Assembly (NCBI GenBank): GCA_973895155.1
Contig: OZ316892.1
Span: 25,443,233-25,507,232 of the forward strand
Length of the DNA: 64,000 bases
Origin: Marsupella aquatica
Lineage: Eukaryota; Plantae; Marchantiophyta
Reading direction: 5' to 3'
Positions within the stretch are counted from its first letter, which is position 1. Each line of letters begins with the position of its first letter. Positions 7,301-48,379 of the stretch are shown here, one piece after another. The position numbers and the translations under genes are program-made. The notes beneath the pieces are model-generated. The model did no database searches. It was not told the DNA's origin and saw nothing but the letters and a program-made list of their open reading frames with translations.

Positions 7301-8625
7301 GAAATGAGATTTTTCATCATGCTGGGAATATGTCTCACATTCCTCAACGTTCTCACAACACCATCAAACATCTGAAATCTTACAGATCCAAGTCCAACAA
7401 CTTGACATGGGATTCCATTTCCCATCAACACTGACCCGTTGGAAACCGTGTAAGAACTGAAACAATCTCTCCTAGAGCAAATGTGAAAAGTACATGCACT
7501 ATCTAGAATCCAGTCATCACTACCTGGATTTGACACTACGTTGAGAGCATAACCTTGACATCACAATATGTCATCATCATCGAGTAAATCTACCTCATGC
7601 GAGCTCGATACCGCATTAGCAGAGGCAGTAGGGACCTTTACTCGACAATCTCTTTTCATGTGGCCAGGCTTGCCACAATTCCAACATGCAAGAGGCTTCC
7701 TCTCTTGCAATTTTCCTCTGGATTTAGATCTTTCCCGTGATGTAGATCTAAACCTGTTCTGCCCATTCGTGCGTTGCGCTGCTCTTCCCCTGTTCACATT
7801 CAGCGCAGTGCCAGAAGAAGATGCTGTCTGTGATTGATCCAGCTTCTTTTGAGCATCATCGGATAGTAATGAGCTCACCACCTCATTATACGAAATGGAC
7901 TTCAAATCTCTGTACAAGAGCACCTATTTCAAGCCCTGATATGATGGCGGTAAGGAGCTTAGCAGAAGCAAAGCCTTATCCTCATCTTCAACTCCTTTTC
8001 CCAGGTTTGACAGATCCATCGCTAGACTGTCAAATTCATCCAGGTGATCTTGCATTTTGCTCCCTTCCTTGAGCCCGAGGCTCATCAAGAGAGACTTCTT
8101 GTAAAGCCGGTCTGACGCATCTTCCCGGTAGTACTTCTCTCTAAGAGCCTTGAACAGTGACGCGCAATCCGCATAATCATCCAGCTGCTTGATGATGTGC
8201 GGCTTGAGATATAGCATCACTGCATTGACAACAATCACCTGTTCCTGTCTCCACTGTCTCACAGAAATCTCCTCCTCTCCATCATACTGCTCTCGCGAAG
8301 AGAGCAGATGAGCTAAGCCCATGGCCCGAAGGACACCCTTCACTTGCTTCTCCCACAGCAAGTAATCAGTACGATCATCGTACTTCTCCACCTCAAACTT
8401 TACTCCTTCGAATCTAGCCATCTCCCTCTTCTTCCCTACTACCGACAGCTCTGGTAGTAACACAACTTCCTCCACTGCACGCCGCACCGGTGATCGTACC
8501 GGTGTCACTAGTTCCTCCTCAAACGGTAGCAGCTCCTCCTCAGACTCACCGTCTAATCGTCGCGATCCTGAAGCTCCACCGATGCCAATTCTTCCGGTAT
8601 CCTCTGAGTCACTCATATGAAACAA
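4341..8625 (-). pseudogene. copia-1 gag-pol (zinc knuckle, protease, integrase, RT, RNase H) with stops and frameshifts
   Basis: CWNCGKPGHMKRDC; WILDSACTFH; HFRLGH...CEHC; HSDVWGP; SKKCIFLGY; YKARLVAKGF; YVDDML; KHIDIRYHFIR. In-frame stops at ~7924, 7561, 6748 and 6650. Confidence 0.95.
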
Positions 8626-14264: not shown

Positions 14265-14795
14265 ATTGAGCTGGTGAAACATGATGAGAGTATGGAGCAC
14301 TTGCCGAGACATGACGAGATGATGGGGCGATGAGCACAGAGCGACAGAGCGACAGAGGATCGGCCGTTCGTTCAGTTGGAGCAGCTGATTCCTGTAAGCC
14401 GATTTTTCTGTCCTCTGGGACTGTTTCCCTAAGGATCGTCGATTTTTTGCAGGGTGTTCGGTTGTGAATCTATTCACATTGAGCTCGGTGAGTGAGTACA
14501 GGATGAGAGGATGGCGCACTTACCAAGCCAGGACGAGATGGTTGGTATGAGCACCGAGCGACAGGGGATCCGGCGAACGTTCAGTTGGTGCAGATGATTC
14601 CTGTCAGCCTATTTTCCCGTTCTCTGGGAATCTCTTCACATTGAGCTGGGTTAGTGAGAACAGGATGAGAGGATAGCGCACTTACTGAGCCACGACGAGA
14701 TGATTGGTATGAGCCAAGAGCGAAAAAGGATCGGCCGTGTGTTCAGTTGGTGCAGCTGATTTCTGTCAGCCGATTTTTCTATCCTCTGGGATTGT
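14265..14795 (+). repeat. Three imperfect ~160-210 bp tandem repeats upstream of the F-box gene
   Basis: Units begin at cattgagct (~14265, ~14477, ~14639) and share gatgagag, gacgagatg, gttcagttgg.gcag.tgatt and tctctggga. Confidence 0.8.
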
Positions 14796-14962
14796 TCTTG
14801 GAGCTGAATTGCCATACATGTAGACGAACTGCTTTCCGCAGTGTTGAAGAGATTTTAGTGCAGTGCTTTTCTGAGCAATTGTTGGTGGCTTGGCACGAGC
14901 AGACACCTCTAGCGTCTACATTCTTACGGGTTCGGGGTCCACTTTTGGACAAGGATTCCACA

Positions 14963-16249
14963 ATGGATTTAAATGATATGTTTCGTCCTCTTCGTTTGGA
15001 GGACGGCGATGGCCAGAACCTGGCATTGGATTCGGTGCGCGGGTTCTACAAATTGCATCCAGACCTTCCAGAACCTGCGGTGGAGACGATTATTTCAGAG
15101 CCTTTACTGGAGGACATTATCCGGAAACACTTGAGCTCGCAGCCCATTCGCAGATTCTTTGAGCTCAGAGTTGTGTGCAAGCACTTGCAGGCATTCTTGA
15201 CCGTTCCTAAGTTACTACAAGCTCACCCAGTTCCTGAATCGTGGATGCTGAAGCAGAATTGTGTGCGGAGAATTGACAACACTGTCACCTTGGACACGTA
15301 CGATGTCCTCCAGAAGAAACCCTTGCTGCTTCCAGTCCCTACACACATTGCTTCGTGCCAGGGCCAACCTGGATTGATTTCCACAGATGAACTCCGAGTC
15401 TCCTCAAGCCAGGGTGGTGAAAGTGGATTGGTTTATTTGGAGAAAAGCGGTGATTCAACCTCCGACTCCAGACGTACAAGAGAATGTTTTGTATTTAATC
15501 CGATGACAAAATCTGCGAGGCAGCTGCGTCTGCACTGTTCAGTTCGACAGGTCGATAGATTTAATTCTGGATATTTGAGCTGGGCTTCCAACCATGGAGA
15601 AGAGATGTTCCCTTTACTGCTTGACCCACTGACTAATACCTGGAACCGAATTGGCTCCGATTTCACAACGAGGGGCCCAATCAGGAAGGAAAAAGCAGTT
15701 GTGAATGAGGTTGTTTACCTACGGTATCAGGGTCGTAGACGTGAATTGAAGGATCAACTCATCATATACGACACGCGTCACAATACCTTCCGAGAGGTGT
15801 CAACAACTGGGTTGCCAGATAACATGGTGGACGAACATTTGTTCCACCATGAGGGCCACATTTACTTGGCAGCTGTGGTATTGGTTCAACCCACAGCTTG
15901 GAAGCGTGTTCTTTTATATGAATTCAAGTCCAGCAGTTCAGAATTGAAATGGGAGATAGTCGGTGAAATACCAGCCCGACTATTGCATGAACTCATTAAT
16001 CCTTACCCTGCAGTTACTAAGCTTAAATTCTTCTACATGGAGCATGAACTCCTGGTGGCAAGTTTTGTGACTAAACGCAGAAGTGATGGTGCCCATGTAT
16101 TCGTTGATGGAGGCGTCTCTCGTTGCCTTGCGGTTGCAGCGTATGATCTCACTTCGCACTCATGGCGCAAGGATGAAAGAAGTCGTTTGGGGCCAGAGCT
16201 CCATGTTAACACCATTGTTTTCAGGCCCAGACTGGACATCGAAGCGTGA
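14963..16249 (+). CDS. Divergent F-box protein with probable kelch-like/beta-propeller C-terminus, intronless (~428 aa)
   Basis: F-box-like LLEDIIRKHLSSQPIRRFFELRVVCKHLQAFL, followed by GLVYL..VFNPMTKS, LDPLTNTW, IYDTRHNTF, WEIVGEIP and AYDLTSHSW. First ATG at 14963. Confidence 0.7.
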   Translation: MDLNDMFRPLRLEDGDGQNLALDSVRGFYKLHPDLPEPAVETIISEPLLEDIIRKHLSSQPIRRFFELRVVCKHLQAFLTVPKLLQAHPVPESWMLKQNCVRRIDNTVTLDTYDVLQKKPLLLPVPTHIASCQGQPGLISTDELRVSSSQGGESGLVYLEKSGDSTSDSRRTRECFVFNPMTKSARQLRLHCSVRQVDRFNSGYLSWASNHGEEMFPLLLDPLTNTWNRIGSDFTTRGPIRKEKAVVNEVVYLRYQGRRRELKDQLIIYDTRHNTFREVSTTGLPDNMVDEHLFHHEGHIYLAAVVLVQPTAWKRVLLYEFKSSSSELKWEIVGEIPARLLHELINPYPAVTKLKFFYMEHELLVASFVTKRRSDGAHVFVDGGVSRCLAVAAYDLTSHSWRKDERSRLGPELHVNTIVFRPRLDIEA

Positions 16250-21347: not shown

Positions 21348-23896
21348 CTACTTGTGCTGCAAATGCAAAACTTGCAAAGTAGCACGGTGTCTTGAGTAAC
21401 TCTCCAAAGGAATCACTTTGGTAAAAGCATCAGCCAGGTTGAGTTTTCCATCAATCTTGACTAGCTCAAACATTTTATCAGACATTGCTTGCCTAATAAA
21501 ATGGTACCTGATGTCAATGTGTTGCACCCTGCTATCCATAACCTGGTTAATAGTTAGGTGAAGCGCACTTTGGCTGTCACAATGAAGAGTCATTTTCCAT
21601 GCTCCAATCCCATCTCAGTGACCAGCTTATCCAACCAAATTGCTTCCTTTGTTGCTTCTGTTGCTGCAACATATTTTGCTTCTGTAGTAGACTGAGATAC
21701 ACACTTCTGCAAGGTAGATCTCCAACTTATGCATCCTCCTCCAAGAGTAAACACATACCCAATCGTTGACCTCCTTGTTTCCAGACAGCCTCCGTAGTCA
21801 GAATCTACATAGCCAACCAAAGAATTGGTTTTGTTTGATCTACTATCAAACAACAGACCATAGTCTATTCTGCCCTTAAGATACCTGAGAATCCATTTCA
21901 CAGCCTCCCAATGTACCTTCCCTAGATTTGACATGAATCTACTCACTTTGCCCATTGCTAGGGCTAGATCAGGCCTGGTACATGTCATCAAATACATTAG
22001 ATTGCCCATTGCCTTCTCATAAGGAACCTTAGTCATCAAGCCTCTCTCCACTGGATCCATGGGGCAGAAGCCGATGATAACTTGAAATGTGAAGCCAAAG
22101 GAATACGTACTGTCTTACAATTTTCCATGTTGAATCTTGCAAGTACCTTTTCAGCATACTTGCCTTGATTCAACCACAACTGTCCAGTTTCAAAGTTCCT
22201 CGTAATCTCCATACCTAAGATCCTTTTGGCTTTCCCAAGATCCTTCATTCGGAATTCAGAACTCAATTTTTCTTTGAGTTTGTCAACCTCAGTTTGATCC
22301 TTAGCCGCAATCAACATGTCATCCACATAGAGCACCAGAATGAGCAAACTAAACACACCATTCTTGACTGATTTTGTATACATACAAGGGTCACACACCA
22401 TCCTAGTGAATCCTTGTGCAAGCATGAAATTATCAAACTGCTTGTTCCACTGCCGAGGAGCTTGCTTCAATCCATACAAGGACTTAAGTAACCTGCAAAC
22501 TAAACTCTCTTGGCTCTTCTTCACAAAGCCCAGTGGTTGCCTCATGAAAATTTGTTCCTCCAAGGTGCCATAGAGAAAAACAGTAACAACATCCATTTGA
22601 TCTAACACCAAATCAAAAAACACAACAAGTTGACACAAAATTTGTATCATGGAATACTTGGCAACTGGAGAGAAGACCTCATTGTAATCCACTCCCTTCT
22701 CTTGAGTGAATCCCTTGGCAACAAGCCTTGCCTTGTATATCTTGTCTCCTCCATCTGAAGAGTTGTCCTTCAGCTTGTAAATCCACTTGCTATCCACCAC
22801 TTGTTGATCACTTGGCAGCTGCACCAGCTCCCATGTTCTGTTGTCACTTAAAGATTACAACTCCCTCTGCATCGCTGCATTCCATTCATCTTTCTCGTCT
22901 GAAATGCACGCCTTATGATAAGAAAAAGGTTCTCCTTCTTCCAAGATCAGTGCTCTGTCATCATCATCAGGTGCAATGTCAATATCATCTAACCTTATGA
23001 ATTTGTCCATTGTCCATACCTTGTAGGAGCTCGAGTAGTATGTCTCAATTTTCTAGCTGATGATTCTGGATGATCTTGTTCTGTTGGTTGAATTGGAGGT
23101 ATTCCAACAACAGCCTGCTCCTCTTGTTCCATTACCGGAATCAGCTCCATTCTCTGAGCACCTCCTTCATTTATGTCATGAAAATTCTCATGACCAATCT
23201 CCCCCACAACATGGTCCAGGATAGGAAATTTACCTTTGTCAGTACGGGAAGCCTGAGCATTCTCCCCCTTTGATGATCTGGATTCATTAAATGATACATC
23301 TCTACTGACAAGCAACGTACAAGCTTCTGGATCCCATAGCCTGTACCCTTTCACACCTGGTTGATAACCAAGAAAAAGACACTTCTTGGAAGTAGAATCT
23401 AGTTTAGATCGATGTTGCTTAGGTGTGAGAGCATATACATTACTTCTAAAGACTCTCAAAACCTGATAGTCTGCATGCCGTCCATACCTCATTTCAAACG
23501 GTGTCTTGAAATTGATTGCACTTGAAGGAGAAAGATTTACCAAATAAGTTGTCGTATTTACAGCTTCAGCCCAAAATTCATGCGATAAACCTGATTGGCT
23601 CAACATACTCCTTGATCGCTCCAATAGTGTTCGGTTCAGCCGCTCACAAACACTATTCTATTGAGGAGTATAAATTATCGTGAGATGACAAGTAATCCCT
23701 TGCTCTGCCCAATACAGTTCAAATTCACTTGAATTGTACTTCCCGCTGTTATCTGATCGTAGATATCTCACCTTGGATCCATTTTGATTCTTAATTTGGG
23801 CTTTTTACTTCTTAAAAGTGCCAAAAACTTTAGACTTGGCGTGTAGAAATGTGATCCACACATATCGTGAGTAATCATCAATGAATGTGACATAGT
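21348..23896 (-). pseudogene. copia-2 pol, 3' part (integrase core, RT, RNase H), decayed
   Basis: YVTFIDDYSRY, FWAEAVNT, SKKCLFLGY, YKARLVAKGF, YVDDML, QHIDIRYHFIR; stops and frameshifts. Confidence 0.95.
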
Positions 23897-23920
23897 AATA
23901 AGAAGCCTTAAAGGATGGGT
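23897..23920 (+). repeat. Left terminal inverted repeat
   Basis: AATAAGAAGCCTTAAAGGATGGGT; 22/24 identical to the reverse complement of 33216-33239. Confidence 0.93.
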
Positions 23921-24217
23921 CTAAGGCCTTAATTCCTTTTTTCAAAAAATTATGATTTTTAGAAATGTAGTCCTAAAACAAGCAATAAAATCAGCATATT
24001 TGTTTGACATTCATCCTTTGCATTTTAAACTAGACTTTACATCAATGTTTGAGACAAAACATATTCAAAACTTGATTTTCATAGCATTGACCTGTCAAAA
24101 ACAATCATTTATATCATAGTCTAGGCTCCAAGGCCATTGACATCTCAAAACTTGCAAGTAAAGTCTACTTCTATGCAACTAAAACAACCCTAAAAAGTCT
24201 TACAGAAATATCCTCAG

Positions 24218-27200
24218 CTAATCATCTCTTGTTTCCTCAACACTTCCAACAACTCCTGAAGAGTCAAGTCCTATGATTTCCTCCTCTCCAACTTCTATCT
24301 CTGGTATTGATAGAATGGTATCTTGAACATCAACATCTAAATCCACCATGCCTTTGCCATCATCTTCCTCAATGTTGTCCACCAGGTTTAGAATTCTCCC
24401 TTTCAAGACACTACTCTGGCGCTCATCAATTTCTACAGCAACACAATGTCTTCCTTGTGCCAAAGAGGAAGACAATCATGTGCCTGACCCTGAACAAATA
24501 TCTAGCACCCAGTCTCCAACCTGGCTAAAGTGGGTAACTTCCCAATCCAATAACACTCTTGGCTTCTGGTAAAAGTTCACCATCTTATTGTCCCCGTTGT
24601 GTTTCAACTTATTGGTCACAGCTGGACACAATCACATTATTTCGAGACTCATTAGTCTCAAAATTGAAATGCTCCAAAGACCGTTTCCCATCCTGACTAT
24701 GAAAGCCAATGGTGAAACACTCAAAATTGCTGTTAAGCCTTGCACCTCCTGCATTCTTAACATTGTCTTTCACCCTGCAAAAACCAAAACTTGCATTATG
24801 GATTTGTTTCAAAATCAAACATCATGAAATCATGAACACCAAAAAAACATATTCACCTTTTGAAATGTTTCTTACCAAATACAATTCTGGAAACCACCAT
24901 TACACTCAGCTTTCAAGATAGTCTTGATAGCATCATACTGGTCAATACTATGATGAATGATAATTCGCCAAAGATTTGCCTTGGTGACAACCTTGAAGGA
25001 CTGAACCATCTTGGTCACCTCTTCCACACCCCATCCAACATTGTCTTCGTGAAGACAAGCAGTCATTCCAAACCCATAAGGAATATCTGCCAAAGCCAAT
25101 GTGTAAGCTCGTGATGGGATTACCTCGTGCAACCGCTGAGCATCGTGTGTAAAGATATCATAGTACACATCCCCAAACTGTGGATGCTCAAAAGCATTAG
25201 GATGAAGTTCACTTCCCTGGGTCTCTTGGCAAGATTTCTTCATTGCCAACCAGTTCTATGCTTGTGCAATATGTGCATTGAACTTATCTGGGAAAGACTT
25301 CAACTCTTTGCTTTCTTCATTCTCTCCCTTCTTTTTCCGGGAGCTGCTGTCTTTCTGAGAAAACAAAATTGGGTACATGAGATTCCTACATACTTAAGAA
25401 TAAAACTGTAAAACAAATGCTCAATCAATCTCAAATAAACTTACCCAAGTCTGGAAGACAGGAACAAAATTCTTTAGCACATTATCAGTGCAGTGTTCTG
25501 GGTACTTGGTTTTGCAATTCTTCCAACTCTCTTCGTGAAGACAGGTAAGAAATGCTTTTTGAACTTGCATTTGGAATTTGTGTCGTTGAAATTCCTGTCC
25601 CATCTCTTGAAGAGATAATTCCTTTGCCAAAACCCTTTGTAGCACTGGACAGATCATGTCCGGATCTTTCAATGCCTGCATGTGTCTCCACTTAGTCAAC
25701 TTCATATCCTCACATAGCATTTTAGCATCTCCAGACTTGGACATCTTTTTCTTGGTCTTATCTCCTTTCTGTCCTTTTATCTCACAAATTCTCCCATCTG
25801 TCAAAGATCTGCCGTATGAAAGACCAAACAAGATCCTTACGAAATGCCAACTGAAATAAATTATCATTGGCATTCAGAACCTCAGAATCTTTACGTACAC
25901 CCCAGTCCTTTAGATTGATTTCAGTGGCACACTCCTTGAAATCAACATTTGATGATGATCCATTCTCTACAAATCGCATGTGAATGTAATTCACTCTTTG
26001 GATGGTGCTCATTTGTTGACGAAATTCAGAGTCTATATTATGACTCCAAGCTAAGTTCCTTGCTTCCTGGATAGACAGACCTGCAAAGATCCAAGATTGC
26101 ACTCTCCTGTACGACTTGTTGTTGGGAAATTGTAATGCTAGGTCTGCCTTTGCACAAGCAGAATGATTTCCCCCAATCACGTAATAGTGGTAATCATTCT
26201 TTTTTGAGAAATCAAAATCAGCTCGAGTTGGGCACTCCTTGGGATCAACCAAGAGAACAAAAGGTGCTGCCAATGGACTAGCTCCAGCTGCTTTCATCCT
26301 TGTTGTCAACTGTGTAAGAAAGTAGGGCTGGATATGCCTTACTTGGTACACTGGCAACTCCAAAGATTTCTCCCGGACAGGTGGGTGAAGTTGTGCAATG
26401 TCAATTATGATTGTCTCCTCTTGAACTCCACACCTCATCAAAATCCCTTCCTGGTACACCACCCGAGCATCCATAGACATAGATTGAGCCTTCTACTCCA
26501 GATGAGTGGGGACTTTTCCAATGTCTGCTTCTTGGATTTTGGTGGACTTGGTCTTGCACCTTGAGAACCCTCTGGTCCACGTTTCTTTGATGAAGTTCGA
26601 GTACCGGTAGTGCCTTGTGCTGATCCTCCAGTCACAGTTGTCCCCTCTTGTGATCTTGCAATTTGTGAACCAGCACCAGATATTGGAGATGTAACAACCA
26701 TCTTTCTTGCTGGGACAGAACTCGGACGAGATCCGGAAGGAGCAGAAGAAGGACCAGACTTTGGTGGACGGGCACTAGCACTCTTCTCTGCTGCTTTTCG
26801 AAGAATCTCCCTAGACTTTCGAATTGCACTCTTCAATGTGCTAGCATGATGTTCAAACACAAAACCAGCAATGAGCTCTGCAATCTCATCGTAGCTTTCT
26901 TCTGCAGACAGATTCTTCACCTTCTCAATAATCATCTCAATGTCATCAGGCAAGTAACAATGCGCAGCTCTTCCAGAAAATCTCTCACTGTCAACTGCAA
27001 TCAGTGTAGATGTCTCCTTTGTTGTGATAAGCATATTGAGGACATCAGCCCCTCGTCGAAAGACATCAATCCGGCCATAATTCACCCAACCAAGACCTCC
27101 AGAAGGCAAGGTCTCGTAGATGCACAACATCAAAAAAGGCTTCTTCCATGATTCTGTACCCAATGATATTGTCCAGGAAGAGTTTCCAAAATCTGTCAAT

Positions 27201-27265
27201 GGATGCTCAACGAAAATAGCGTCTAACACCTTCTCCTGTAATTTTGGTTCAACCATTCTGACATC
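24218..27265 (-). pseudogene. ParB/Srx-like domain + beta-class N6-adenine/N4-cytosine DNA methyltransferase fusion, spliced and disabled; 5' end unresolved
   Basis: Introns at 24775-24875 and 25355-25444, probably also 27266-27361 (all GTAAG...CAG). ParB-like part: YQVR..LTTRM..PFVLLV..YYVIGGNHSACA..LSIQEARNLAWSHN..MSTIQRV. MTase part: LALADIPYG (motif IV, DIPY 25076-25087), CIWVKDN, NFYQKPRVLLDW..SQVGDWVLDICSGSGT*LSSSLAQGRHCVAVEIDE (motifs X/I/II). Stops at 26493, 25256 and 24476; frameshifts near 26515, 25785 and 24625. Confidence 0.85.
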
Positions 27266-27579
27266 CTGAAATCAAGTCCAACAATGCAAAGTCAGCTTTG
27301 TTTGTTTTTCAAGTTCAGTTGCAGAATTCAGGTTCATGATTTCATGAAGCAAGGTTCTTACCTTGACAGTGTGAGTCGGAAGTTGAATTTGCAGCGCCTG
27401 AGCCTAGACGGTTGTTCCCGCTTAGAAGAGTGTCACTGGTGTTTTTCTCCCTGATTTTGGCTTAGCTTATGTCCTTCACCTCCCTGGCAGATGCCCGAGC
27501 TGATCGACCCCTCCCCACTTAATGTCGTTTGCAATGTCCTCCCCGATTTGGACCTCGTCTCTTCGGCGATGGACCTCCC

Positions 27580-28085
27580 TTGGCCCTTCGACAGTTTCTC
27601 CTCCCCCGTCCTTTGCCAATTTCTTCCTCCCCTGGCGCTTCGACTATTTCCCCTCGATCCCCCAACCTTTGACGCTTCAGCCCCACGCCTCGACACATTT
27701 TCTTCCCCCCGGCCTCAACACTTTTTCCTCCCCCCGCGCCTCGACACTATTTCCTCTCCCAGGCCTTTGCCAATTTTGCCTCCCCGAGGCCGGCGCTTCT
27801 TCCCCGTGCCCCTGGCCGCGCCTCGACAATTTTTCCCCTCCCCGAGGCAATTTTTCCCCGCGCACCTGGCCGCGCCTTGACAATTTTTCACCTCCCTGAG
27901 GCTGGCGCTTCTTCCCCGCGCCCCGGCTGCGCCTCGACAATTTTTCCTCCCCCCGGCCTTTGCCAATTTTTCCTCCCTCCCCTGGCCTTCAAGAATTTCT
28001 CTCCGCTCCCCTGAATTTTGCCAATTTCCTCTCCCCAGGCCTTCGACAATCCCCTTCCCGAGCGCAAACTTGCACGACAGCTTTT
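27580..28085. repeat. GC-rich degenerate tandem repeat array inside the DNA transposon
   Basis: Recurrent gcctcgacaatttttc(c)tcccc, ggcctttgccaatttt and ggcgcttcttccccg units. Confidence 0.8.
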
Positions 28086-28418
28086 GATCTTGCTGCCTCC
28101 TAACCAAATTTCTTCCACTCCCTTACACGATTAATCCTCTGTTCCACGACCGATCTACGCCTCAACAGTCAGGAAATTACAAAGCTGCACCAGATGTTGG
28201 TCCGCCCCCCGATTTTCTGTTCCAGTTTAGGGATTCAACCCAACTCCTATTCAGACCACACCAATCACTGAGGGAAGAGCTTTCCACAGCACCAAGCATC
28301 AGCCCACCATAGCTCTTCGCCAAGGTTCCTTTCCGTTCGCCCTTTGCAGATGCACGCCCACACTCCAAGCACCTGACAGTCCAATTTGTCTCAAACTTAG
28401 CATTTTCTAATTTTTGGG

Positions 28419-28494
28419 TTCATGAATTCATGAAGCTTTCGCCACCTCCACTTCAGGAATCCAGGAAGGTCGTAACCCTTCATGAATTCATGAA
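28419..28494. promoter_or_regulatory. Two perfect 16-bp palindromes TTCATGAATTCATGAA, 60 bp apart, in the divergent intergenic region; putative protein-binding sites
   Basis: 28419-28434 and 28479-28494, with a degenerate copy at 28452-28467. Function is inferred only. Confidence 0.55.
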
Positions 28495-29096
28495 AGGGAA
28501 TCAAGTATCATTTGAAAGAATCTAGTAAAAAGTCAAAATTTGGGCCCAAAATAACCAATACCATGGGTAAAAGAAATACAAGAAAAAACCAAGAAAACCT
28601 CTAAAAACAAAGGTCATTGAAGACATTTTTGGTTGCAATTGAATAGTCTCCAAAAACATCAAAGAAAACATGGGGTAAAAATGACCAATGCATTACTGAT
28701 ACACTATCTTAAGAGTTTAGCATGAAAACATATGCTTTAAGTAAAAAATAAAATTATGAGAAGTCTCACAATATTTCAGGAGAAGACTTCACATGAATGA
28801 ATTAACCAAGTCTCCAAGAACTCTAATGAGTATTAGAAACCTGAAAACATAAGTAAACCTGTGCGATTTGAATAAATAATAAACTATTTTCTCATGAAAG
28901 ATTTCTTTCCTTTTCACTAATTACTAATGAGGGGGCCTGGCCCTTTTCCTTATTTTATTGCTAATTAAGTTTTTGAGTTATTTCCAAAATCTATAAAAGG
29001 GGCTTGGTATTCATGACTCTATCTCATTTCAATTTTTCAGTTTGAGTTCATTTGGTGTTCTAGGTGTTCCCTTGTGAGTTTTGTGCAATTTTTGAA

Positions 29097-32000
29097 ATGG
29101 CAGCCTGTTATGAGTCAGACGATTATTCGGATGGTATTTCGGATAATGTTTCCTTCCCGGATTGTCATTGTCCTGTTACTTCTCCAGATGCTCCTAGTAA
29201 AACCACTATTTTGGAGATGCTTCCCCCAACTCCAATGAGTAAGTTGAAAGGAAAGGCTCTAAGTGTACCAAATATTCAGCAAAAAGTATTTGGTCCTTGT
29301 CTGAGTGAGCACTCTGAGTCTTCGGACTCATCTGAGAGTACAAGTCCCCCTGGCCGTCAAGTATTATCGAATCCTTCTCAAAGAGGGGTTAAATTGGGTG
29401 TGCGTTCTGTAGGCCCTCAACATAGTGGAGATGTGAAAAAGAGGACTCATGAATTCATGAAGGCCAGATCTGGAGATGTGTCAAAAATGCCCAGTGAAAA
29501 CCCAAAAGTGGATTTTTGTGCATTCCGGGAAAGTCGTGGTGTGCAACATGCACCAATGAAAGAGAGTGAGTATTCTCGTCCTACATCTTTCAGATTTCAA
29601 GAAGGAGTGAGAGCGGAAACAAGGAGGCCGCTTGGAACTGAGACTAATTCAAACAAGGAGAGGATCAATTTGAGAAGATCTCCAGGGAACTTTGATCGTT
29701 TGGCTGAGGTTGGAAGCGGATCTAAGCCGGCATACAACAAGGGCAAGAAGAAGGTCTTTGAGGAGATTCCAAACAAGAGGCCAAGAGAGTCAACCGAAGG
29801 TGGTTTCTTTGGAGATTCAGATGGAAATCGATCAAACTCACTCCTTTTGAGAGTGAAGGAGGAGCCATTGAGTCCTCGAGGGCCTGCTCGAGGCCGGGTG
29901 AGGAGGGGTTTGTCTGCATACCAACTTGATAAACTTGTGGAGATATCTTCTTCAATCGAAGAATCTTCTTCTGAGAGTGATGGAGAGCCCGCAGAGAGAG
30001 TTATGATGGCTAATAAACGACCGTCAAATCTCAGCTTGTGTGAAACAAAGATGACAGACGAGGATATCAAGAAGACAAATCGTAAGTACTGCTGTCAACG
30101 TCATTGTCTCCTGAGTCTTTCACCAAAACAAATTCGTGAAGCACGCTCAAAGTTTTTGAGGCAAAAATCTCAGGATCGATCTTTATCTTTGCAGTGGCTC
30201 GTCAAGCAAGACGGAAATGAAGAGGGGAGGTCCAATGTCACATACATGATTGGACAAAGAGATGTGTGTCGGAAAGCTTTCAAGATGGTCTTTTGTGTAG
30301 GAAATGAGAGATTGAATAGGATCAAGAAGCTAGGCAATCAAGATCTTGCTTATCCTAGACCAGCTGGTCGACCTCCATCTATGAGAACATTGGTATTGAG
30401 CTCTTGGTTGAAGTCTTTTTTTGAGACTCGTGTGGAGACTCTACCAAATAAAGATGTTTCACATTTGCCTGATAATTATTCCAAACTAGAAGTTTGGAAA
30501 ATATATGATTCAAGCTATGTGATCACTGATGAGTCATCCAAAATATCATATCGGCAATTTTTAAAAGTATGGTCACAAGACTTTGGGCATGTGAAGATTC
30601 TTCCTGTGAATCGTTTTAGTGCTTGTGCGGACTGTGAGGAATTCAAAACGATTCGAGACAAAGGAGTCTCTGAAACTGAAAAACGTAAGTCATTTTCATT
30701 TTTGTTGTTTTGAACATGTCTTTGTATTAGATTTGTCAGGAAATCAATTGAGTAATGGCTAAACATTAGGAATGAATTTCAAGTTAACAACGTTGCTCTA
30801 CCATTTTTGGATTCATTGCAGGGAGAGGAGAAATAATGTTACAAAAACATCGAGAACAACAATCGAAAGAGCGGGAAAAACTAGCAAAGCATCGAAAGAA
30901 ATGTTTCACAAACCCAGAAAAATATTTGGGAGTTGTGATTGATGGAATGGATCAAAAAAAGACTAGATTACCCCATTGGCCACGTCCTCCAAAATCGGTT
31001 GATAAGGCCTGTTTAATCCAAATGCATGTGGTTGGTTGTCTTCTTTTCCACGAAGCACTATTTTCTAGGGTGTTCCTTAATTATCCAGTTCTTCATAATG
31101 ATGGAAATCTTACCATTACTATTTTACAAAGAGTATTCCTAGAATACCAAGAGAAGTATGGGGGCCTTCCACTAGTTTTTTACCTTCAGCTTGACAATAC
31201 AAGTAGGGAAAACAAAAACAATTTACTTTTCACATATCTTCACATGCTGGTACAAAAAAAGGTATTTCGAAAAATCAAACTTGGATTCCTCTTAGTTGGA
31301 CACACCCATTATCAAATAGATCAGATGTTTAGTAGGTTCTCAAAAAGGCTTGGAAGATTTAAGGCCTTTACCTATGATAGTTTATGTAAGATTATTCAAG
31401 AATCTTACCAACCCCAACCTGAAATTACCCTTTTAAATGAGACATATGATTTTCGAAAATTTGCTTTCTTAGAGCCTGCTTTGATCAGAGAAAGGATACG
31501 AAATGTTACTTTTCATCACCAATATAAAATTTCTTTTGCTTGTGAAGATGATCAAGTTCCAACACAATGGGGGAAGAAATTTTCCACCGACACGGTTTGG
31601 AAACCAGAAGGAGGTGTTAAGTTGTTGAAAGAAGACATGCCACCAAAGGTGATTGGGTGCTCTGATGGGATGCCACTTATCAAGAAAGGAGATAAGAAAC
31701 GAGATGACGGAAGGGCGGGAAATCAAGCTCATGTATCATCTTCAGGAAAAATGACCCTTTCCGAAATGGATGATTGTTTGAATGAAATTCAAAAAGGTAT
31801 ATTTGCAGCTCAAATATTATTCTCGGAAGAAGAAGTTGTTTGGTGGACTTCTTTTTTTGAGGAAAAAAGAGAATTCAATCGATCTCTCTTGCTTGAAGAA
31901 AGACCTTTGATCTCTCCATTTGAATGGCCCAAGGCACAAGGGGATACAAATGTTGAAGCTGATCTCAGAGCTAAACCTCTTACAACTATATTGAATGAGG

Positions 32001-32569
32001 AAGAAATTGAAGAGAGAGTGTACGGTCCAACTAGAGAAATTTATGTTGGTCCATATCGAAATCAAGAAAAGATAGATGCAGAGAAGGAGAATATGGAAGG
32101 TGATTTTTCGGATTTGGAAATCAACACATTTATTTCTGTGGCCGGAGAGAAGTCTGAATCATTTTGGGTGGCTAAAGTAGAAAAAATTGTTCTTCGCGAT
32201 GAGGCTCACATCCCAAAGATTATCTCAGTTCTGTGGCATGCAGCAAAGAAAGGATCCGACCCTTGGAAAGGAAAATATCTGCCAGAAGTGTTGAGTTACG
32301 AGAAGAAGAAAAGTGGACGAGGCAAGGGAACCTTGAAACCAGTTTGGTTTCGTCAAGACCTTGATCTGTCTTCAACTATGGTCTTTGCATATAATTTTAT
32401 GCTAACAAGGTCTGGTACTCTTTACAAGAAAACAATAGATCGTATTAAAATACGACTCTCAGAATTTCTCAAGGAGGAGAAAGACCAAGAAGGTGAAGGT
32501 AGCATAGTTAGAAATTATCAACAAGAAACTTCAATGGAAGTTCCTCTAGAAATGAATGGTAGGAATTAA
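29097..32569 (+). CDS. Transposase, Sola-like RNase H-fold (DDD/E) family; exons 29097-30684 and 30822-32569, ~1111 aa, uninterrupted
   Basis: Intron 30685-30821 (GTAAGT...TGCAG) joins the two ORFs in frame. Cys motifs YCCQRHCL, VCRKAF and FSACADC; core IDGMDQKKT, YLQLDNTSRENKN, FLLVGHTHYQIDQMFS; TATA-like ctataaaa at 28991. The superfamily call is from motif memory plus the 4-bp TSD. Confidence 0.85.
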
Positions 32570-33215
32570 GATTTACCAATCTTAGCAATTTTGTCAAACA
32601 AGAGTATTTGCAATTTATTATTGTTTGAGTTGGTGGCAAACCATAAATGTTGTGAATGATGAATTCATGAATTCATGAATGATATTGAAAGAAGTTTGAC
32701 ATTTTGAGAATGTCCATCGTGTGGGCAGTCTTGTTTGAGAAATTCAGAAAACAAAATATCAACTAATAGAGGTACCTTCTAGAATCTCATATATATGTGG
32801 AAGCTTTTGATATACTCGTCATTCCCTTTGTGTGAATGATGGTTTTTCTTGGTAAATGAACCCTAGGATCCTACAAACTGCAAAATAATTTGGACATCTT
32901 GACCCTCTTTTAAAAACTTTACATATTTGGGATGTCAATAAACTTTAGGGTGGTATTTCAATGGTGAATGTGTTATTGAGCCGATTGAATGTGTGCAAGT
33001 AGTAAATTGCAACATTGAAATATGTGGTATTTGCTATTAAATGTTTCCCACAACCAGTTTTGTGATTTTGAGTAGTCAAAATGATGCCATATTTTGTGTT
33101 TTTTTGCAAGTTTTGAGTTCTTGCCAAAAAAAGAGCTTGTTTTTAGATGCATTTTTTGCCTTTTTCCATATTTTCAAGGTTTTTTTATCATTAGTTCTTA
33201 TACATTGGGCTTATT

Positions 33216-33239
33216 ACCCATCCTTTAAGGCTTCATGTT
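33216..33239 (-). repeat. Right terminal inverted repeat
   Basis: ACCCATCCTTTAAGGCTTCATGTT. Confidence 0.93.
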
Positions 33240-34840
33240 TAGTATAATTTTCCAGAAAGTGAGGGAGTTGGGGCTGGACCCCACACATCACTATGTACAT
33301 ACTCAAGTATAGCTTTGGTATTGTGAGTTCCAACACCAAAGTTTCTCCTGTACTGCTTCCCAAGCACACAGTGTTCACAAAAATCTAACTTAGTAGATTC
33401 CAAATTAGAAAGAAGTTCTTTCCTGCAAAGTACCGCCAAACCTTTTTCACTCATGTGTCCCAATCTGCAGTGCCACAACTGAGTCATCTCGGCTTGAGAT
33501 CTAGTTACATTGGCTTCTTCACAAATCACGTTGCCCTCCAACAAGTATAGATTCCTGTGCCGCTTACCCTTTATGACAACCTTGCCTCCGGTTGACACTT
33601 GAAGAATACCATCAGCAGAACTCCACCGACATCCATTTGCTTCCAGCATTCCAAGAGAAATCAAGTTCTTTTTCATGTCAGGTATGTGTCTAACATTACT
33701 CACTGTTTGCACAGCTTCATCAAACATCCAAATTTTCACGGATCCAATTCCAACAATTTGACAAGGATGATCATTCCCCATCAACACGGAACCGATTGAT
33801 ACTGAGTAAGAACTAAAAACCTCTTTCATACAATAAATATGATAGGTACAAACACAATCTAAAATCCATTCATCACCGTTGTTACTGGATGAAATGCAAA
33901 GGGCAACATCTTGACTTCACAAGATTTCATCATCAAACAAGTCAATCATATCAACATCAGTGGCTGTGTTCGTTGATGGTTGATGAGTCTGCTTGACTCA
34001 ACAGTCTCTTTTCATGTGGCCGGGCTTGTTACATTTCCAACATATAATCGGTTTCTTTTCTAGAGATTTCTCTCTAGACCTGGATCTAGACTTAGACCGA
34101 GCCTTCTCCTTGCCTCTATTCCGTGAGGGGTATGATTGTGGAAAGGACCTATTTTCACTAGTCATCCGTTGTTGAGTCCTCCCGTGGTTGACATTCAACA
34201 CACTGCCAGATGAAGATAGTGTCTGGGTATGACCTAGTTTCTTTTGTGCATCATCTGACAGCAAAGAGCTTACCACCTCATCATATGAAATGGTTTTGAG
34301 GTCTCTATACAAGAGAACCTGCTTCAAACCTTGATACGATGGGGGTAAGGAGCTGAGAAGAAGCAATGTCTTATCTTCATCTTTCACTCCCTTGCCAAGA
34401 TTTGACAAATCTACAGCTAGGCTATCGAATTCATCCAAGTGATCTCAAAGCTTGCCGCCCCTCAAGCTCATCAAGAGAGACTTCTTGTACAACCAATCTG
34501 AGGCATCCTCACGGTAGTACTTCTCTCTGACGGCCTTGAATAAGGATACGCAATTCTCATAATCGTCCAGCTTCTTAATGATATGCGGCTTCAGATACAA
34601 CAAAATCGCATTCACAACGATCACTTGCTCCTGCCTCCATTTCCTCAACGGGATCTCCTCCTCACTGCTAGACTCCTCCTGAGTCGATAGCAGATGATCT
34701 AGGCCCATTGCACGAAGAATTCCCTTAACTTGCTTCTCCCATAGCAAATAATCCATGCGCCCATCATACTTTTCCACCTCAAACTTGACACCTCCAAATT
34801 TGGATGCCATCTCTATCCTGTCGCCGTTCTCCATGTGCAA
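33240..34840 (-). pseudogene. copia-2 gag, protease and integrase N-terminus, decayed
   Basis: KFEVEKYDGR, CWKCNKPGHMKRDC, WILDCVCTYH, HCRLGH...CEHC, HSDVWGP. Confidence 0.95.
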
Positions 34841-37150: not shown

Positions 37151-38509
37151 GGCTGGCCCTTGATAAGGCACATTGAAATAAAAATATATGACACCAAAAC
37201 TCTGAATAAGACAAAATGTGAAAGGTGGATTCACCATATAGCAACTTCAAAATTTTCAACACTCAACCAGGTTGCACAAGTGTTCATGAAAACTGACATG
37301 CCATCTTGGCGTCTTTCAGGTTCAAGGCGGGGTTCAAGGGTGTCAAGCAGTGTTTTTTTTAGTGGCAAAAATTAGCTAGATTCCACCTCCCCAAAAATCT
37401 TTTTGCCACTTTGGCAAAAATTTGTTAGTACTAAAAAATAAAAAAATAAAATAAAATTTGTTAGTACGATTTTGCTGTCTCATTAGCCAGTGTTCCACCT
37501 GATCCCAGGCCCCATTAGTCAGAATCTAACCGTCAGCCTTAAATCTAGGGAGATCTGACAGTCAAGAAAATACTTGAATAGTGAATCTTTTGAGCATCTT
37601 CTTCTTCGCCCACTTTACATTTGCCAGTCTGGCCGCTGCTGTCAAGTCATCAAGCCACTCAGGAAACCCATCTACAACTATATATAATATGATACCCTGC
37701 CAAATCTGGATTTTTTTTTGATCAATTGATTTGTGGCTGTTCGATATACCCTATGTTTAACTATGATAGTCAGATTCATAAAAGAAAAGGTTAAGGGGAC
37801 CATTCACAACAATGGGAGACATGCTTAAATGGGAAGGGAAGAGGAAATATAGAGGACATGTAAAATGACGCGACCATTCACAAGAGTGGGAGACATGCTT
37901 AAATGGGAAGGGAAGAGTAAATGTAGAGGACATGTAAAATGACGCATATTAAGAACAAGAATTATGTGAGTTGCTCAGTATGGCTGCGCATGTGAGGGAG
38001 GCACATAGGAAAGTGTGTCTCATCTCTAAGTTTTATTTAAATATACATCCAATTAAAATATTATTTTTGAATTTTATTAGACCTGGAAAGTGACACCACA
38101 GGGAAAGGGAGGGTGTACAGGGGTGAACAAGCAAGAAATACAAATATTACTCAAGGTGGAGCGAAGCATTCTTTAAATGTGATTATTTAATTTAGTTTTT
38201 ATAATGTGCATTTATTTACTGGTAAGCTTTAGTGTACACATGGAATCATTTGTCTTGCTTTGTGTGATTTTTAATAATTTATTTGAATTTTGAGAGCTGG
38301 TGGAGACCATGATGCCCGCCATGATGATCCCATTTGTTTGAATTGTAACTTTTTGAATTTTCATTTAAATAAGAGATGAGAAATTAGGTATTCTCACTAA
38401 GAATGGTTTGACCACTTCTCATTTTGTCCAAGAAATTAGAAAGAAAATTGATTTTTTTTCTCTTTCATTTCATTTTGTTGGGACAAGGTGATAATTTTCC
38501 CAGTCAAAG

Positions 38510-40855
38510 TCAAGCTTGCCGGTACATGTGGGCTTCAAAAGAAAGTGGAGGTGAATCTCAGCTTCAGAAGAGACGTGGTGCTAGAGACATGGTGCTGATA
38601 TATATTCTCAAAATACAAAGAAACACTGGCTAAAGTCAATTCAATTCTAGTAGACATAACTCTATGGTCATCATGTGCATGGGAAAATCTGAACACATGA
38701 TTATGATCTATGTCGGTGCTAGAGACATGGTGCTGATATATATTCTCAAAATACAAAGAAACACTGGCTAAAGTCAATTCAATTCTAGTAGACATAACTC
38801 TATGGTCATCATGTGCATGGGAAAATCTGAACACATGATTATGATCTATGTCAACTGGTATATGCAAGTTTTTTGTGATAATTTTATGGTCATCATGTGC
38901 ATGGGAAAAACTGATGACATGACTATGATGTATGTCAACTGGTACATGCAAGTTTTTTATGATAGTTTTTAAGTATTTATATTCAAAAAATATGGGCACT
39001 ATGGCCCCACCACAACATATGTACATAGAAGATGGATGTGCATAAAAAAAGACTGATGTGCACATAAAGAAGAATGGTATATTATATATGATTATTAAAA
39101 TGATGAGTTTGTCTATCATTTCATTAACCGTCAAAGAATATGAATAGAAAATATATTTTGATTATACTTTTATTATCCTCTCCACTATTCATGTTCTAAG
39201 AACGGGTAATCAGGGCTAGTTGAGCTTCACGCTGAACGTTCAAAAGAAATTCCCGGAAACTCCTATGCATGAGATGAGCACACAAATCGAATCATGACTG
39301 TAACTCTGAAAGACCAGTCAGACTTGTTGTGTCTCTTTCGAAAGACTTTTGTAATCTTACGAATTGAAAACCAAAACCAATTCTGCAGCCGTCGGTCAGA
39401 CTTCGTTTCAAAGTGACATATATATCAGGGATGTAACATATATCTCAGGGATGTACTATAGACATGATGAGTGCACTTCTAGATTTATTTTTGCTCATAA
39501 TCTTGCAAATGAATAGGGTTGGAGAAAGGTATTGTTGGGTGGGGGATGGGGACAAGAGCCGAAAACACCCTTGCCATGCAACTTCTACCTCTCCTCCCCA
39601 TCCATAACTCACTTTTTTCACACCTCCATTAATATGGAATCCCTCCACTTTTTGTCCCTAGTCCGCTTACAAAAACCAAAAAAGGCGAGCTGGATCTAAA
39701 TAATCCTAGCCTTCCATTGAAAACAATACAGTTTAATCACCGTCGAATGAAGATCCAAAAACCACCTTAACTCCCTAAACCCCCCTCAGTTTTTTTTGGT
39801 GACCCTTGATCTGCAAAACTCCATAGCTCTGGACACAATCTCCTCTAACTCCCTTTTGGTATGTTGGGTTTCTCCCACTTTGCCTTTTATCTTACTTTGA
39901 CGTCTTTGCCTTGCCTCAACATCTTTCCTTCATCTTGACATCTTGCCCTCGCCCTGGCATCTTTCCCCTCACCTTGACATCTTGCCCTCACTCTAAATGT
40001 TGCCCTCACCTCGACATCTTGCCCCTCAGCTCAAAGTCTTGCCCTCACCTCAAAATTTTGCATTCACCTCGACATCCGACCCTCACTCAAAATCTTGCCC
40101 TCATCTTGATATCTTGCCCTCACCTAGAAATCTAGCCCTACTTAACCTTGACATCTTGCCCTCACATTGACATCCAGCCCTCACTTGAAACACTTGTCCT
40201 CACCTTAACATCTTGCCCTCACTCAACATTTTTCATGTAACTCTGGGGCATAGGGCTATTTGGTAGTGATTAAAACACTCTCCAAACCTTAGAGAGACCC
40301 TTAATATACAAGAGAGACCCTTTACATTTCAGTGAAAAGTTTAAACATTGCAATCCAAGTCAATGTCGAGCTTGCCAGTACATCTGGGCTTCACAAAAAA
40401 GTGGAGGTGAATCTCGGCTTCAACAGAGACATGGTGCTAGAGACATGGTGCTGATATATAATCTCAAAATACAAAGAAACACTGGCTAAAGTCAATTCTA
40501 GTATTGTGTTGCGTGCACTGGAACTCTGATCCGGGCCCACGCATATAGACTGATTCTGCTCTAGGCCCAAGTCCAGTAACGCGCTGCCCAATTTGACACT
40601 TTGCTGACATTGAGCTTCACGCTCTAAAGAAATTCCCGGAAACTCCTATGCACGAGATGAGCGCACAGATCGAATCATGACTGTAACTCCGAAAGACCAA
40701 CTCCGAAAGACCAGTCAGACTTGTTGTGTCTCTTTCGAAAGACTTTTGTAATCCTACGAATTGAAAACCAAAATCGATTCTGCAACCGTGGGGCAGACTT
40801 CGTTTCAAAGCACCTTATATATCAGGGATGCACTATAGATATGATGAGCGCACTA
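38510..40855 (+). repeat. Local direct duplications: 38510-38640 ~ 40368-40498, 39220-39475 ~ 40610-40855, and a ~138-bp tandem pair 38577-38852
   Basis: Shared ggtgctagagacatggtgctgatatata...aaacactggctaaagtcaattc (3 copies) and gaaagaccagtcagacttgttgtgtctctttcgaaagacttttgtaatc (2 copies). Confidence 0.9.
39895..40230 (+). repeat. Degenerate ~20-bp minisatellite (cttgacatcttgccctcac)n
   Basis: About 15 imperfect tandem units. Confidence 0.85.
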
Positions 40856-41006
40856 ACTTGTATAGTGACGGGGAATCAGTGTGAGGAGAGGAGGTCTAGT
40901 CGTTCTCATCTAGACAGTGAGTAGCTTACAGTCGATGTTCGATAGAGGATAAGGAAGTAGGAAACGAATTGAAGGAGACAGGGAAGGAGATCGAGCAAGA
41001 CGCGTC

Positions 41007-42038
41007 ATGGCCATCATGAGGAAAGAACAGAGAGACATCGATGGGCTGGGACCGATTGGGATCGTCCGTGAGTCTCTCAAGGTCTTCTGCGCGCACGCCA
41101 AGGTCTTCGCCTTGATTCAGCTAGCGCTGATGTTAGAATTGGCGATCTTGTTGGTCGTAATCCAATACTTTCTCTACATGTCACTGCCGCATCCGGAGCC
41201 AGACCAGCGCTTCAATGGCCTCCGATTTCTGTATGTTCCTCGTTTCGTCAGCCACTTGCAAATCTCGGTCCATGGTTCAGTGGGTGGGCCTCTGCTGAAT
41301 GTGGTTCTGTTGGTGGTTGTCACGTCGGCCTGTTTGATCGCCTTTCAAGCAGCTCTGAGTCTCTCGCTTGCGGCCACTATCTACGCCGTGGGCCTCCACT
41401 ATGCCGGCCAGGCCGGTTCCTTCGTCGATGTAGTGCGGGCTGCCACACCCCGACTGTGGATGCGCCTTGCTCTCACCAATACTTATGCCAGTTTGATATC
41501 CATGTCCTACGCATACGTGTACACTCTAGGCAATGTACTCCTGAGACAATACAACGTCCCCAGGTTGGCGCTTGTTCAATTGGTGTTCTTGTGCTTGCTG
41601 GTGGTTGGGTCGCTCTACATTCAGATCATCTTCTCAGTTGCTGCTGGTGTGTCTGTTCTGGATGAAGACTACGGGTGGGCGTCTGTGACCAAGAGTCTTA
41701 AGCTGCTGAAAGAGAAAACGATCATAGCTCTCTTGTTTCAGGTCTTGTTTTACTTGCCGGCTGGCGTCAATTTTGGCCTCCAGTACGCACTGCATTCTCA
41801 AATCGACAAGGATGTTTATTCGCCTTGGACTCTCACGCTCTTGCTCCTTGCCGTAGTCGTGTACCTAGGTTGGACGACCTTCATCTGGCAGTTCCAAGCG
41901 TTGTCTTCAGCAGTCCAATATGTGTCGTTTAAGGCTTATCATGACGAGAGCCTTCCTGCTTCCCTTTACGAGCGAACAACGAAGGAGGGATATGAACATA
42001 TTCAAGATGACAGTAATGCGGCTCTACTTGGAGCATGA
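41007..42038 (+). CDS. Uncharacterised plant multi-pass membrane protein (343 aa, intronless)
   Basis: Clean ATG-to-stop ORF with ~6 hydrophobic segments. The LGPIGIVRESLKVF and VSVLDEDYGWASVTKS motifs resemble a widespread plant membrane-protein family. Confidence 0.8.
   Translation: MAIMRKEQRDIDGLGPIGIVRESLKVFCAHAKVFALIQLALMLELAILLVVIQYFLYMSLPHPEPDQRFNGLRFLYVPRFVSHLQISVHGSVGGPLLNVVLLVVVTSACLIAFQAALSLSLAATIYAVGLHYAGQAGSFVDVVRAATPRLWMRLALTNTYASLISMSYAYVYTLGNVLLRQYNVPRLALVQLVFLCLLVVGSLYIQIIFSVAAGVSVLDEDYGWASVTKSLKLLKEKTIIALLFQVLFYLPAGVNFGLQYALHSQIDKDVYSPWTLTLLLLAVVVYLGWTTFIWQFQALSSAVQYVSFKAYHDESLPASLYERTTKEGYEHIQDDSNAALLGA

Positions 42039-46726: not shown

Positions 46727-48379
<1,653 letters not shown>

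Follow-up and report, generated by a model that had tools for sequence, protein, structure and literature searches.

The closest described counterpart of the element considered here is Sola1-1_Ec32 of Ectocarpus, which carries on the opposite strand a gene for a ParB domain and an N4mC/N6mA methyltransferase (MTase) and for which self-binding and self-modification were proposed (PMC12477816). In red algae, PF01555 and ParB accessory genes, named PAG2 and PAG3, are found on Plavaka, Mutator and Zisupton elements; the Bostrychia preprint that describes them also proposes that tandem inverted repeats on the element serve as ParB binding sites (bioRxiv 10.1101/2025.02.11.637652). N6-adenine (N6A) MTases are described as few in land plants, and the ParB-linked eukaryotic MTases listed in that account are from algae and fungi and do not include the plant family described below (PMC4738411). 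That family was encountered in a 64,000-nucleotide stretch of the liverwort Marsupella aquatica (contig OZ316892.1, positions 25,443,233 to 25,507,232; hereafter the window, numbered from its first base), where a ParB-like protein fused to an MTase is encoded by a DNA transposon. The initial annotation of the window had flagged this architecture as possibly new. It had already been described for Sola1-1_Ec32, together with the same self-marking hypothesis (PMC12477816), and its novelty is further undercut by the red-algal transposons (bioRxiv 10.1101/2025.02.11.637652). What is new here is the land-plant range, the evidence on selection and linkage, and a candidate binding site. A literature search returned no land-plant report of a ParB-MTase transposon, although an earlier moss or lycophyte mention is possible in Iyer 2011, to which green-algal cases are credited, or in Repbase. 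The same search found no paper mentioning DUF7869, the Pfam family of the transposase described here, and the available text of a moss transposable element paper does not mention Sola (PMC7466625).

Working copies of the element are proposed to encode an accessory protein that binds TCATG-N4-CATGA palindromes within the same element and deposits N6-methyladenine (6mA) on it, a reading of the sequence given a probability of about 0.5. ParB and Noc read 16-bp palindromes, parS and the Noc-binding site (NBS), respectively. By the proposed mechanism, a dimer of the accessory protein would read its palindrome through a ParB-type helical region, and the tethered MTase would use S-adenosylmethionine to methylate adenine nearby or within the CATG half-sites. 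With adenines marked at both promoters, within an intron and within the transposase gene, the element would stay expressible despite host silencing by 5-methylcytosine (5mC); alternatively, the mark might time transposase expression.

The element spans window positions 23897-33239 (9,343 bp) and was inserted in, and splits, a Ty1/copia integrase gene. Its terminal inverted repeats (TIRs), each of 24 nt, lie at 23897..23920 (plus strand) and 33216..33239 (minus strand), the left arm being 92% complementary to the right. Target site duplications (TSDs) of 4 bp, both TAGT, follow in register at 23893..23896 and 33240..33243 (plus strand). Together the flanks make up a split Ty1/copia pol gene, with matches to RVT_2, SH3, gag_pre-integrase and Pol_BBD. 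Elsewhere in the window (about 4.5-8.6 kb) lies an uninterrupted copia copy that can be aligned to both flanks (78% identity, 4 bases of overlap) and is continuous across the site, so the element is a genuine insertion that duplicated 4 bp. TSDs of 2, 3 or 5 bp were considered and discarded, since none of them would keep register with the TIRs. The TIR- and TSD-bounded 9.3-kb element of the initial annotation is thereby confirmed, as are its two divergent genes, a plus-strand transposase and a minus-strand ParB-MTase gene. No further TIR pair or miniature inverted-repeat transposable element was found in the 64-kb window. The element is a cut-and-paste TIR DNA transposon, now decayed. The copy that serves as the empty-site control (4532-8625, minus strand) is itself degraded and shares about 78% identity with the Ty1/copia element that was interrupted.

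The accessory ParB-MTase gene (24218..27256, minus strand) yields a read-through of about 948 residues that comprises an N-terminal domain, a low-complexity linker, a ParB-fold domain, a helical region, a beta-class amino-MTase and an acidic C-terminal tail (35% D+E). Its motifs run GGNHS, DIPY, QKP, DICSGSG and VAVEID. Both of its introns have GT-AG boundaries: intron 1 (25355..25444, minus strand, 90 nt) and intron 2 (24775..24875, minus strand, 101 nt), the latter with a palindrome at 24821-24836. The annotated protein P0012 of the liverwort Calypogeia fissa joins exons exactly as predicted for the window gene, with intron 1 at the same codon position, and in metagenome loci L001 and L002 both introns fall at the same codons as in the window, with one additional N-terminal intron. 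The spliced minus-strand gene proposed at the outset is thus backed by three relatives. A likely 5'-untranslated-region intron is predicted at 27266..27361 (minus strand), with GT-AG ends and a palindrome at 27333-27348. The first 100-130 residues of the protein (27256-26960, minus strand) form a conserved domain that belongs to no known family.

The window copy of the accessory gene is broken. Three frameshifts (near 26515, 25788 and 24627), to which the initial annotation had merely alluded, are joined by three in-frame stops (26495, 25258 and 24478). The damage may reflect a pseudogene or, in part, errors of assembly; stops that arise by substitution point to decay. Because its MTase gene is broken, the window copy is a relic and cannot itself write a mark.

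The ParB/Srx-fold domain and the start of the helical region lie at 25785..26471 (minus strand; GGNHS at 26174-26160), and the remaining helical region, predicted to be the ParB-type DNA-binding part from a weak fold match, lies at 25445..25786 (minus strand). An AlphaFold (AF2) model of the C-terminal half of exon 1 was built from a 15-sequence homolog alignment (predicted local distance difference test score, pLDDT, 76). A Foldseek search with this model placed Noc/ParB on top (E 4e-6), and all 13 Foldseek matches listed at E <= 0.001 are ParB/Noc; KorB is also among the fold matches of the accessory-protein model. The N-terminal domain of the model overlays Caulobacter ParB over 96 residues (VIA Z 9.2, root-mean-square deviation (rmsd) 2.4 Å). 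As modelled, the accessory protein has the ParB N-terminal fold. The ParB/Srx-like domain of the initial annotation therefore holds as a fold and not as a Pfam ParB match: Pfam and PDB sequence searches returned no match to a ParB domain, and the assignment comes from the fold search and the atlas, where look-alikes of the ParB part are DUF3723 and ParB_N. Sponge, mollusc and fungal DUF3723 clusters are among these look-alikes, a hint of a wider eukaryotic family of ParB-fold cargo. In the homolog P0205, an N-terminal sterile alpha motif (SAM) domain is fused to the helical part.

The MTase part, whose assignment rests on profiles, is by that measure a beta-class amino-MTase closest to CcrM and RsrI. 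Motif IV reads DIPY (25076..25087, minus strand) and aligns to the DPPY of CcrM; QKP and the S-adenosylmethionine-binding motif I, DICSGSG, follow at 24482..24568 (minus strand), a piece that matches PF01555 at E 0.0056 on its own. DIPY falls at residue 694 and DICSGSG at residue 855 of the read-through, placing motif IV before motif I in the beta-class order first noted in the initial annotation. P0012 passes the curated PF01555 cut-off (32.7 bits vs 26.7), while the window's own unbroken piece scores 17.1 bits, below it. Seven of 34 of the longer listed relatives exceed the cut-off, and eight reach E <= 0.01. Searched against solved enzymes, the family profile matches CcrM (E 1.5e-10), RsrI (2e-9), DpnA (4e-9) and MboIIA (8e-8), and N4C enzymes rank behind (E 2e-5). 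The NCBIfam CcrM and PHROG 67 profiles also match the family. Across 13 long family members, motif IV shows almost no variation at its Asp and Pro; distant family members have the canonical DPPY, and relatives as far apart as Chara and Ginkgo retain the motif IV Asp, QKP and motif I.

Because the family has Asp in motif IV and 6mA enzymes rank ahead of N4C enzymes, these sequence features favour 6mA as the predicted mark, in agreement with the earlier lean drawn from the Asp. An enzyme that writes N4-methylcytosine (4mC), as do N4CMT and DN4MT1, and that derives from the lineage that gave liverworts DN4MT1 is very unlikely. PF01555 spans both marks and has switched specificity repeatedly (PMC8885841), and N4C enzymes are matched at E 2e-5. 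Both known eukaryotic 4mC enzymes, however, are described with an SPPY motif (PMC8885841; bioRxiv 2021.02.12.428880), whereas the window family has Asp, and the higher rank of 6mA enzymes in the profile search also argues against 4mC. The further suggestion that such an element was the source of DN4MT1 is not favoured, given the reported TSPPY of DN4MT1 and the D-x-P-Y of the family.

Relatives show that the accessory gene has been maintained. The nearest named relative is that of Calypogeia fissa (65% identity). A search with the accessory gene recovered 10 homologs, nine of which terminate at intron 1 or shortly beyond it, as prokaryote-style gene calls would; the N-terminal, ParB and helical parts form one frame in all eight homologs long enough to test. 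A profile of the ParB part recovered 621 clusters at 50% identity (E <= 0.001), of which 150 were listed. Twenty listed ParB-part proteins looked up by name include six from Chara, four from Riccia, three from Adiantum, two from Ginkgo and one from Ptychodera. Relatives occur in liverworts, a fern and a hemichordate as well as in Chara and Ginkgo. None was found in annotated phages or IMG/VR, and none in GTDB genomes by exact-word patterns, which distant relatives could escape. Among the window, L001 and L002, nonsynonymous differences per site (pN 0.05-0.33) fall below synonymous ones (pS 0.55-0.94) in 15/15 pairwise comparisons of ParB, helical and MTase blocks, with synonymous sites near saturation. 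By these comparisons, strong purifying selection has acted on the ParB, helical and MTase parts among relatives. The long residence in eukaryotes initially proposed fits both this pattern and the introns at the same codons in relatives.

Linkage to a transposase recurs beyond the window. In L001, a divergent open reading frame (ORF) 1.0 kb upstream of the accessory gene starts MAACYE, and 13 of its first 21 residues are identical to the start of the window transposase. This start scores 61, compared with a best score of 28 among 67,288 other 20-mers, and L001 promoter DNA matches that of the window (95.5 vs a shuffle maximum of 66.5); by BLASTP, the two transposase N-termini match weakly (E 0.048). 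On one 45.9-Mb Riccia sequence, neighbouring tags encode a transposase (R1sor_010795) and a ParB and PF01555 protein (R1sor_010796). Two further pairs, P0005 with P0016 and P0178 with P0099, come from contigs of identical length within each pair (8829 and 8915, respectively) and so are each probably on one contig, which is circumstantial. The linkage anticipated by the initial annotation is thus found in L001 and Riccia and probably on two further contigs. By tblastn, none of the retrieved transposase homologs matched DNA upstream in L001 or L002, nor the flanks of L003, and adjacency could not be shown for Chara, Adiantum or Ginkgo.

These results bear on whether the accessory gene is inert cargo, a host pseudogene captured once, as the initial annotation had entertained. 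The window copy is broken, and many homologs are not tied to a transposase. Yet the same divergent arrangement occurs in L001, the two genes are neighbours in Riccia, the family comprises 621 clusters under strong purifying selection, and the same pairing is described in Ectocarpus (PMC12477816). Purifying selection rules out a one-off captured pseudogene, and because of the linkage and selection results together, one-off capture is largely refuted and barely credible. Separately, L003 (2700-5388), L004 and L005 constitute a distant AT-rich subfamily (about 37% identity) with motifs close to those of the Ginkgo proteins. Members of this subfamily have extra introns and DIPH or DIPR at motif IV, and lie amid long interspersed nuclear element (LINE) and gypsy fragments. 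P0247 of Ptychodera flava is an animal member with a ParB part and a degenerate MTase (DVPN).

The candidate binding site is the palindrome TCATG-N4-CATGA. It occurs six times in the element and not once in 54,657 flanking bases, and six occurrences were reached in 0/100 shuffles; L001 has four copies and L002 three. One palindrome lies mid-way in intron 2 in all three close elements (window, L001 and L002), although intron 2 of the window and L002 is otherwise no more alike than shuffles. The divergent promoter region holds two perfect 16-bp palindromes (28419 and 28479) and one degenerate copy (28452) within 28419..28494. In both the window and L001, palindromes lie within transposase exon 1 (at 29446 in the window), and a TCATGA half-site follows a TATA-like box (28990..29016, plus strand) that is conserved in L001 upstream of the transposase start. 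Overlapping palindromes lie at 32656..32679, downstream of the transposase stop codon. The central four bases differ by family and the half-sites stay fixed, a pattern expected of the site of a dimeric protein. C/T-rich tandem repeats with units of 26-29 and 54 nt (27574..28013) also lie between the two genes. In L002, two perfect 32-bp CATG-centred palindromes (307-338 and 349-380), much longer than those of the window, lie upstream of the ParB-MTase gene.

Dam methylation controls the transposition of IS10 and IS50. By analogy, the palindromes might be transposase sites, and the MTase might turn transposition on or off by methylating the ends of the element; this is quite unlikely. A TTCATG half-site does sit at the tip of the right TIR, and a half-site follows the transposase TATA-like box in two elements. 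The left TIR tip, however, lacks the half-site in the single pair of ends seen, and the full palindromes lie at least 560 bp from either end, in introns and coding DNA, and are not subterminal.

Several observations weigh against binding and self-methylation by working copies. Motif IV of plant members is D-[IFLA]-P-[YH] (DIPY, DFPY, DLPY, DAPY or DIPH) and not DPPY, and its Tyr is replaced by His or Arg in Ginkgo and in L003/L004-type copies. Over residues 170-317, the helical model matches Spo0J residues 128-225 of the parS complex weakly (Z 5.0, rmsd 4.6). The ParB arginine patch, GxRR, is typical of ParB clamp proteins that hydrolyse cytidine triphosphate (CTP). In its place the accessory protein has GGNHS, within a family pattern of GG[NGTQ]H[ST], and because of this substitution a CTP clamp appears doubtful. 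TCATG-N4-CATGA is absent from each of the distant loci L003, L004 and L005. L001 and L002 are related, intron 2 still being alignable between them, so the conserved intron-2 palindrome represents two independent lineages. GATC, GANTC and plain CATG are not enriched in the element, plain CATG being seen 36 times against 43.5 expected. All three DNA copies of the accessory gene (window, L001 and L002) have at least one stop, L001 and L002 having one each. L003 shows no transposase beside its accessory gene in 9.5 kb, and only one of four Riccia ParB proteins adjoins one of the 42 listed Riccia transposases.

Some of these points suit a different role, in which the accessory protein is mainly a DNA binder or repressor, akin to KorB or Noc, that autoregulates both promoters and whose MTase fold is weak, inactive or directed at RNA or single strands. 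The palindromes at both promoters and in the 5' region of the transposase gene are consistent with such a protein, as are the presence of KorB among the fold matches and the departures of motif IV from DPPY, including the DIPH, DIPR and DVPN variants. Eukaryotic N6A-MTases are also reported to have shifted repeatedly to RNA, with inactive copies in DIRS elements (PMC4738411). This role is nonetheless unlikely: constraint is as strong in the MTase blocks as in the ParB block, the motif IV Asp, QKP and motif I are kept between Chara and Ginkgo, and the closest solved structures are DNA 6mA enzymes.

Self-marking by a palindrome-binding methylase thus remains preferred for working copies. A tentative and somewhat doubtful extension is that the element belongs to an ancient Sola-like lineage, spanning charophytes, liverworts, ferns, Ginkgo and marine animals, with its own parS/ParB-like addressing: a dimer at family-specific palindromes would paint 6mA over its own element and so counter host 5mC silencing, and the protein would be a natural programmable, site-tethered adenine methylase. 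The algal ParB-methylase accessory gene has so far been the subject of a single descriptive paragraph, with no experiment. The present finding extends ParB-methylase transposon cargo to land plants, shows strong selection on it across streptophytes and, by naming a specific candidate binding site that recurs in conserved places, opens the self-marking hypothesis to direct tests. If the hypothesis is correct, such a transposon would be a writer and not an eraser of a DNA mark on its own sequence, and plant genomes would have a defined source of 6mA.

The transposase gene (29097..32569, plus strand) has two exons (29097-30684 and 30822-32569) separated by an intron (30685-30821) and encodes 1,111 residues in an open frame without an internal stop. 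Exon 2 matches the Pfam family DUF7869 (E 1e-49). Pfam supplies only this label; the DN..xxNKN and GHT...D pattern of the protein is one we take to be Sola-like. D570, D654 and D696 each occur in 96-99% of the aligned homologs (n=101) and form a candidate catalytic acidic triad of the DDD/E type. At residue 693, the window protein has Tyr, where 98% of the 101 aligned homologs have Asp or Glu and none has Tyr, so the protein may be impaired despite its open frame. The intact transposase of the initial annotation accordingly holds for the reading frame and is called into question at residue 693.

Transposase homologs numbered 129, and the 120 listed come from Riccia (42), Adiantum, Ceratopteris, Chara, Cymbomonas, amphioxus and Ptychodera, among others. 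The nearest named relative among those listed is from the liverwort Riccia sorocarpa (52% identity). A quick tree drawn from 102 of 121 rows, with 19 short homologs omitted and no order of events drawn, placed the four linked transposases at three spots, with P0099 adjoining a Chara transposase. The 4-bp TSD agrees with that of Sola1-1_Ec32. At the one site available, TAGT/ACTA does not fit the AWWT preference reported for Sola1 (PMC3845634), and ACTA fits the reported bias of Sola1-1_Ec32 targets to end in A. Kolobok was rejected as the superfamily: its described hallmarks are a TTAA TSD and C/DxxH (PMC9587614), and the TSD here is TAGT.

Outside the element, the window contains a long intronless ORF resembling an F-box/kelch-type plant gene (14669-16249, plus strand; weak Kelch_6 match, E 0.009), a 361-residue ORF resembling a multi-pass membrane protein with no clear Pfam family (40953-42038, plus strand), and an exon of a papain-family cysteine protease with an I29 propeptide (47792-48577, minus strand). 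Tandem arrays at 39897-40222 and 37798-38969 (a 19-nt unit in about 17 copies and units of 74, 84 and 138 nt) may belong to another element.

Among known systems, Sola1-1_Ec32 resembles the window element most closely, as judged from its published description. In both, a ParB-MTase fusion gene lies opposite a DDE transposase inside one TIR element, the TSD is 4 bp, and the termini start AA (AACCG there, AACAT/AATAA here). The fusion protein is 1,104 residues in Sola1-1_Ec32 and about 948 here. Sola1-1_Ec32 is a 21.5-kb brown-algal element with 282-bp TIRs, whereas the land-plant element is 9.3 kb with 24-bp TIRs, and the available description of Sola1-1_Ec32 includes no palindromic sites. PAG2 and PAG3 likewise place a PF01555 N6-adenine methylase and a ParB-like protein on DNA transposons. 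In the account available, however, they are separate genes, MTase-SET and ParB-2OG oxygenase, on elements with EnSpm-type and other transposases, whereas the window element encodes ParB and MTase in one protein and has a DUF7869 transposase. Marchantia DN4MT1 and bdelloid N4CMT share with the accessory protein a PF01555 beta-class domain of bacterial origin in a eukaryote. As described, they are host genes that have SPPY, write 4mC and lack a ParB domain; the window family has D-x-P-Y with ParB.

The accessory protein shares motif IV before motif I, QKP and DxxxGSGT with its best sequence matches, M.CcrMI, M.RsrI, M.MboIIA and phage PHROG 67, and differs from these adenine MTases in its D-[IFLA]-P-Y, N-terminal ParB fusion and spliceosomal introns. 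With ParB, Noc and KorB it shares the N-terminal fold, a weakly matched helical domain and palindromes of a length similar to parS and NBS; unlike them, it has GGNHS for the arginine patch, no match to Pfam ParB and a fused MTase. VANC of the Arabidopsis VANDAL elements causes 5mC loss, is not a methylase and accompanies a MuDR-type transposase. Like VANC, the accessory protein would be a transposon-encoded factor that uses short internal sequence motifs to act on the element encoding it.

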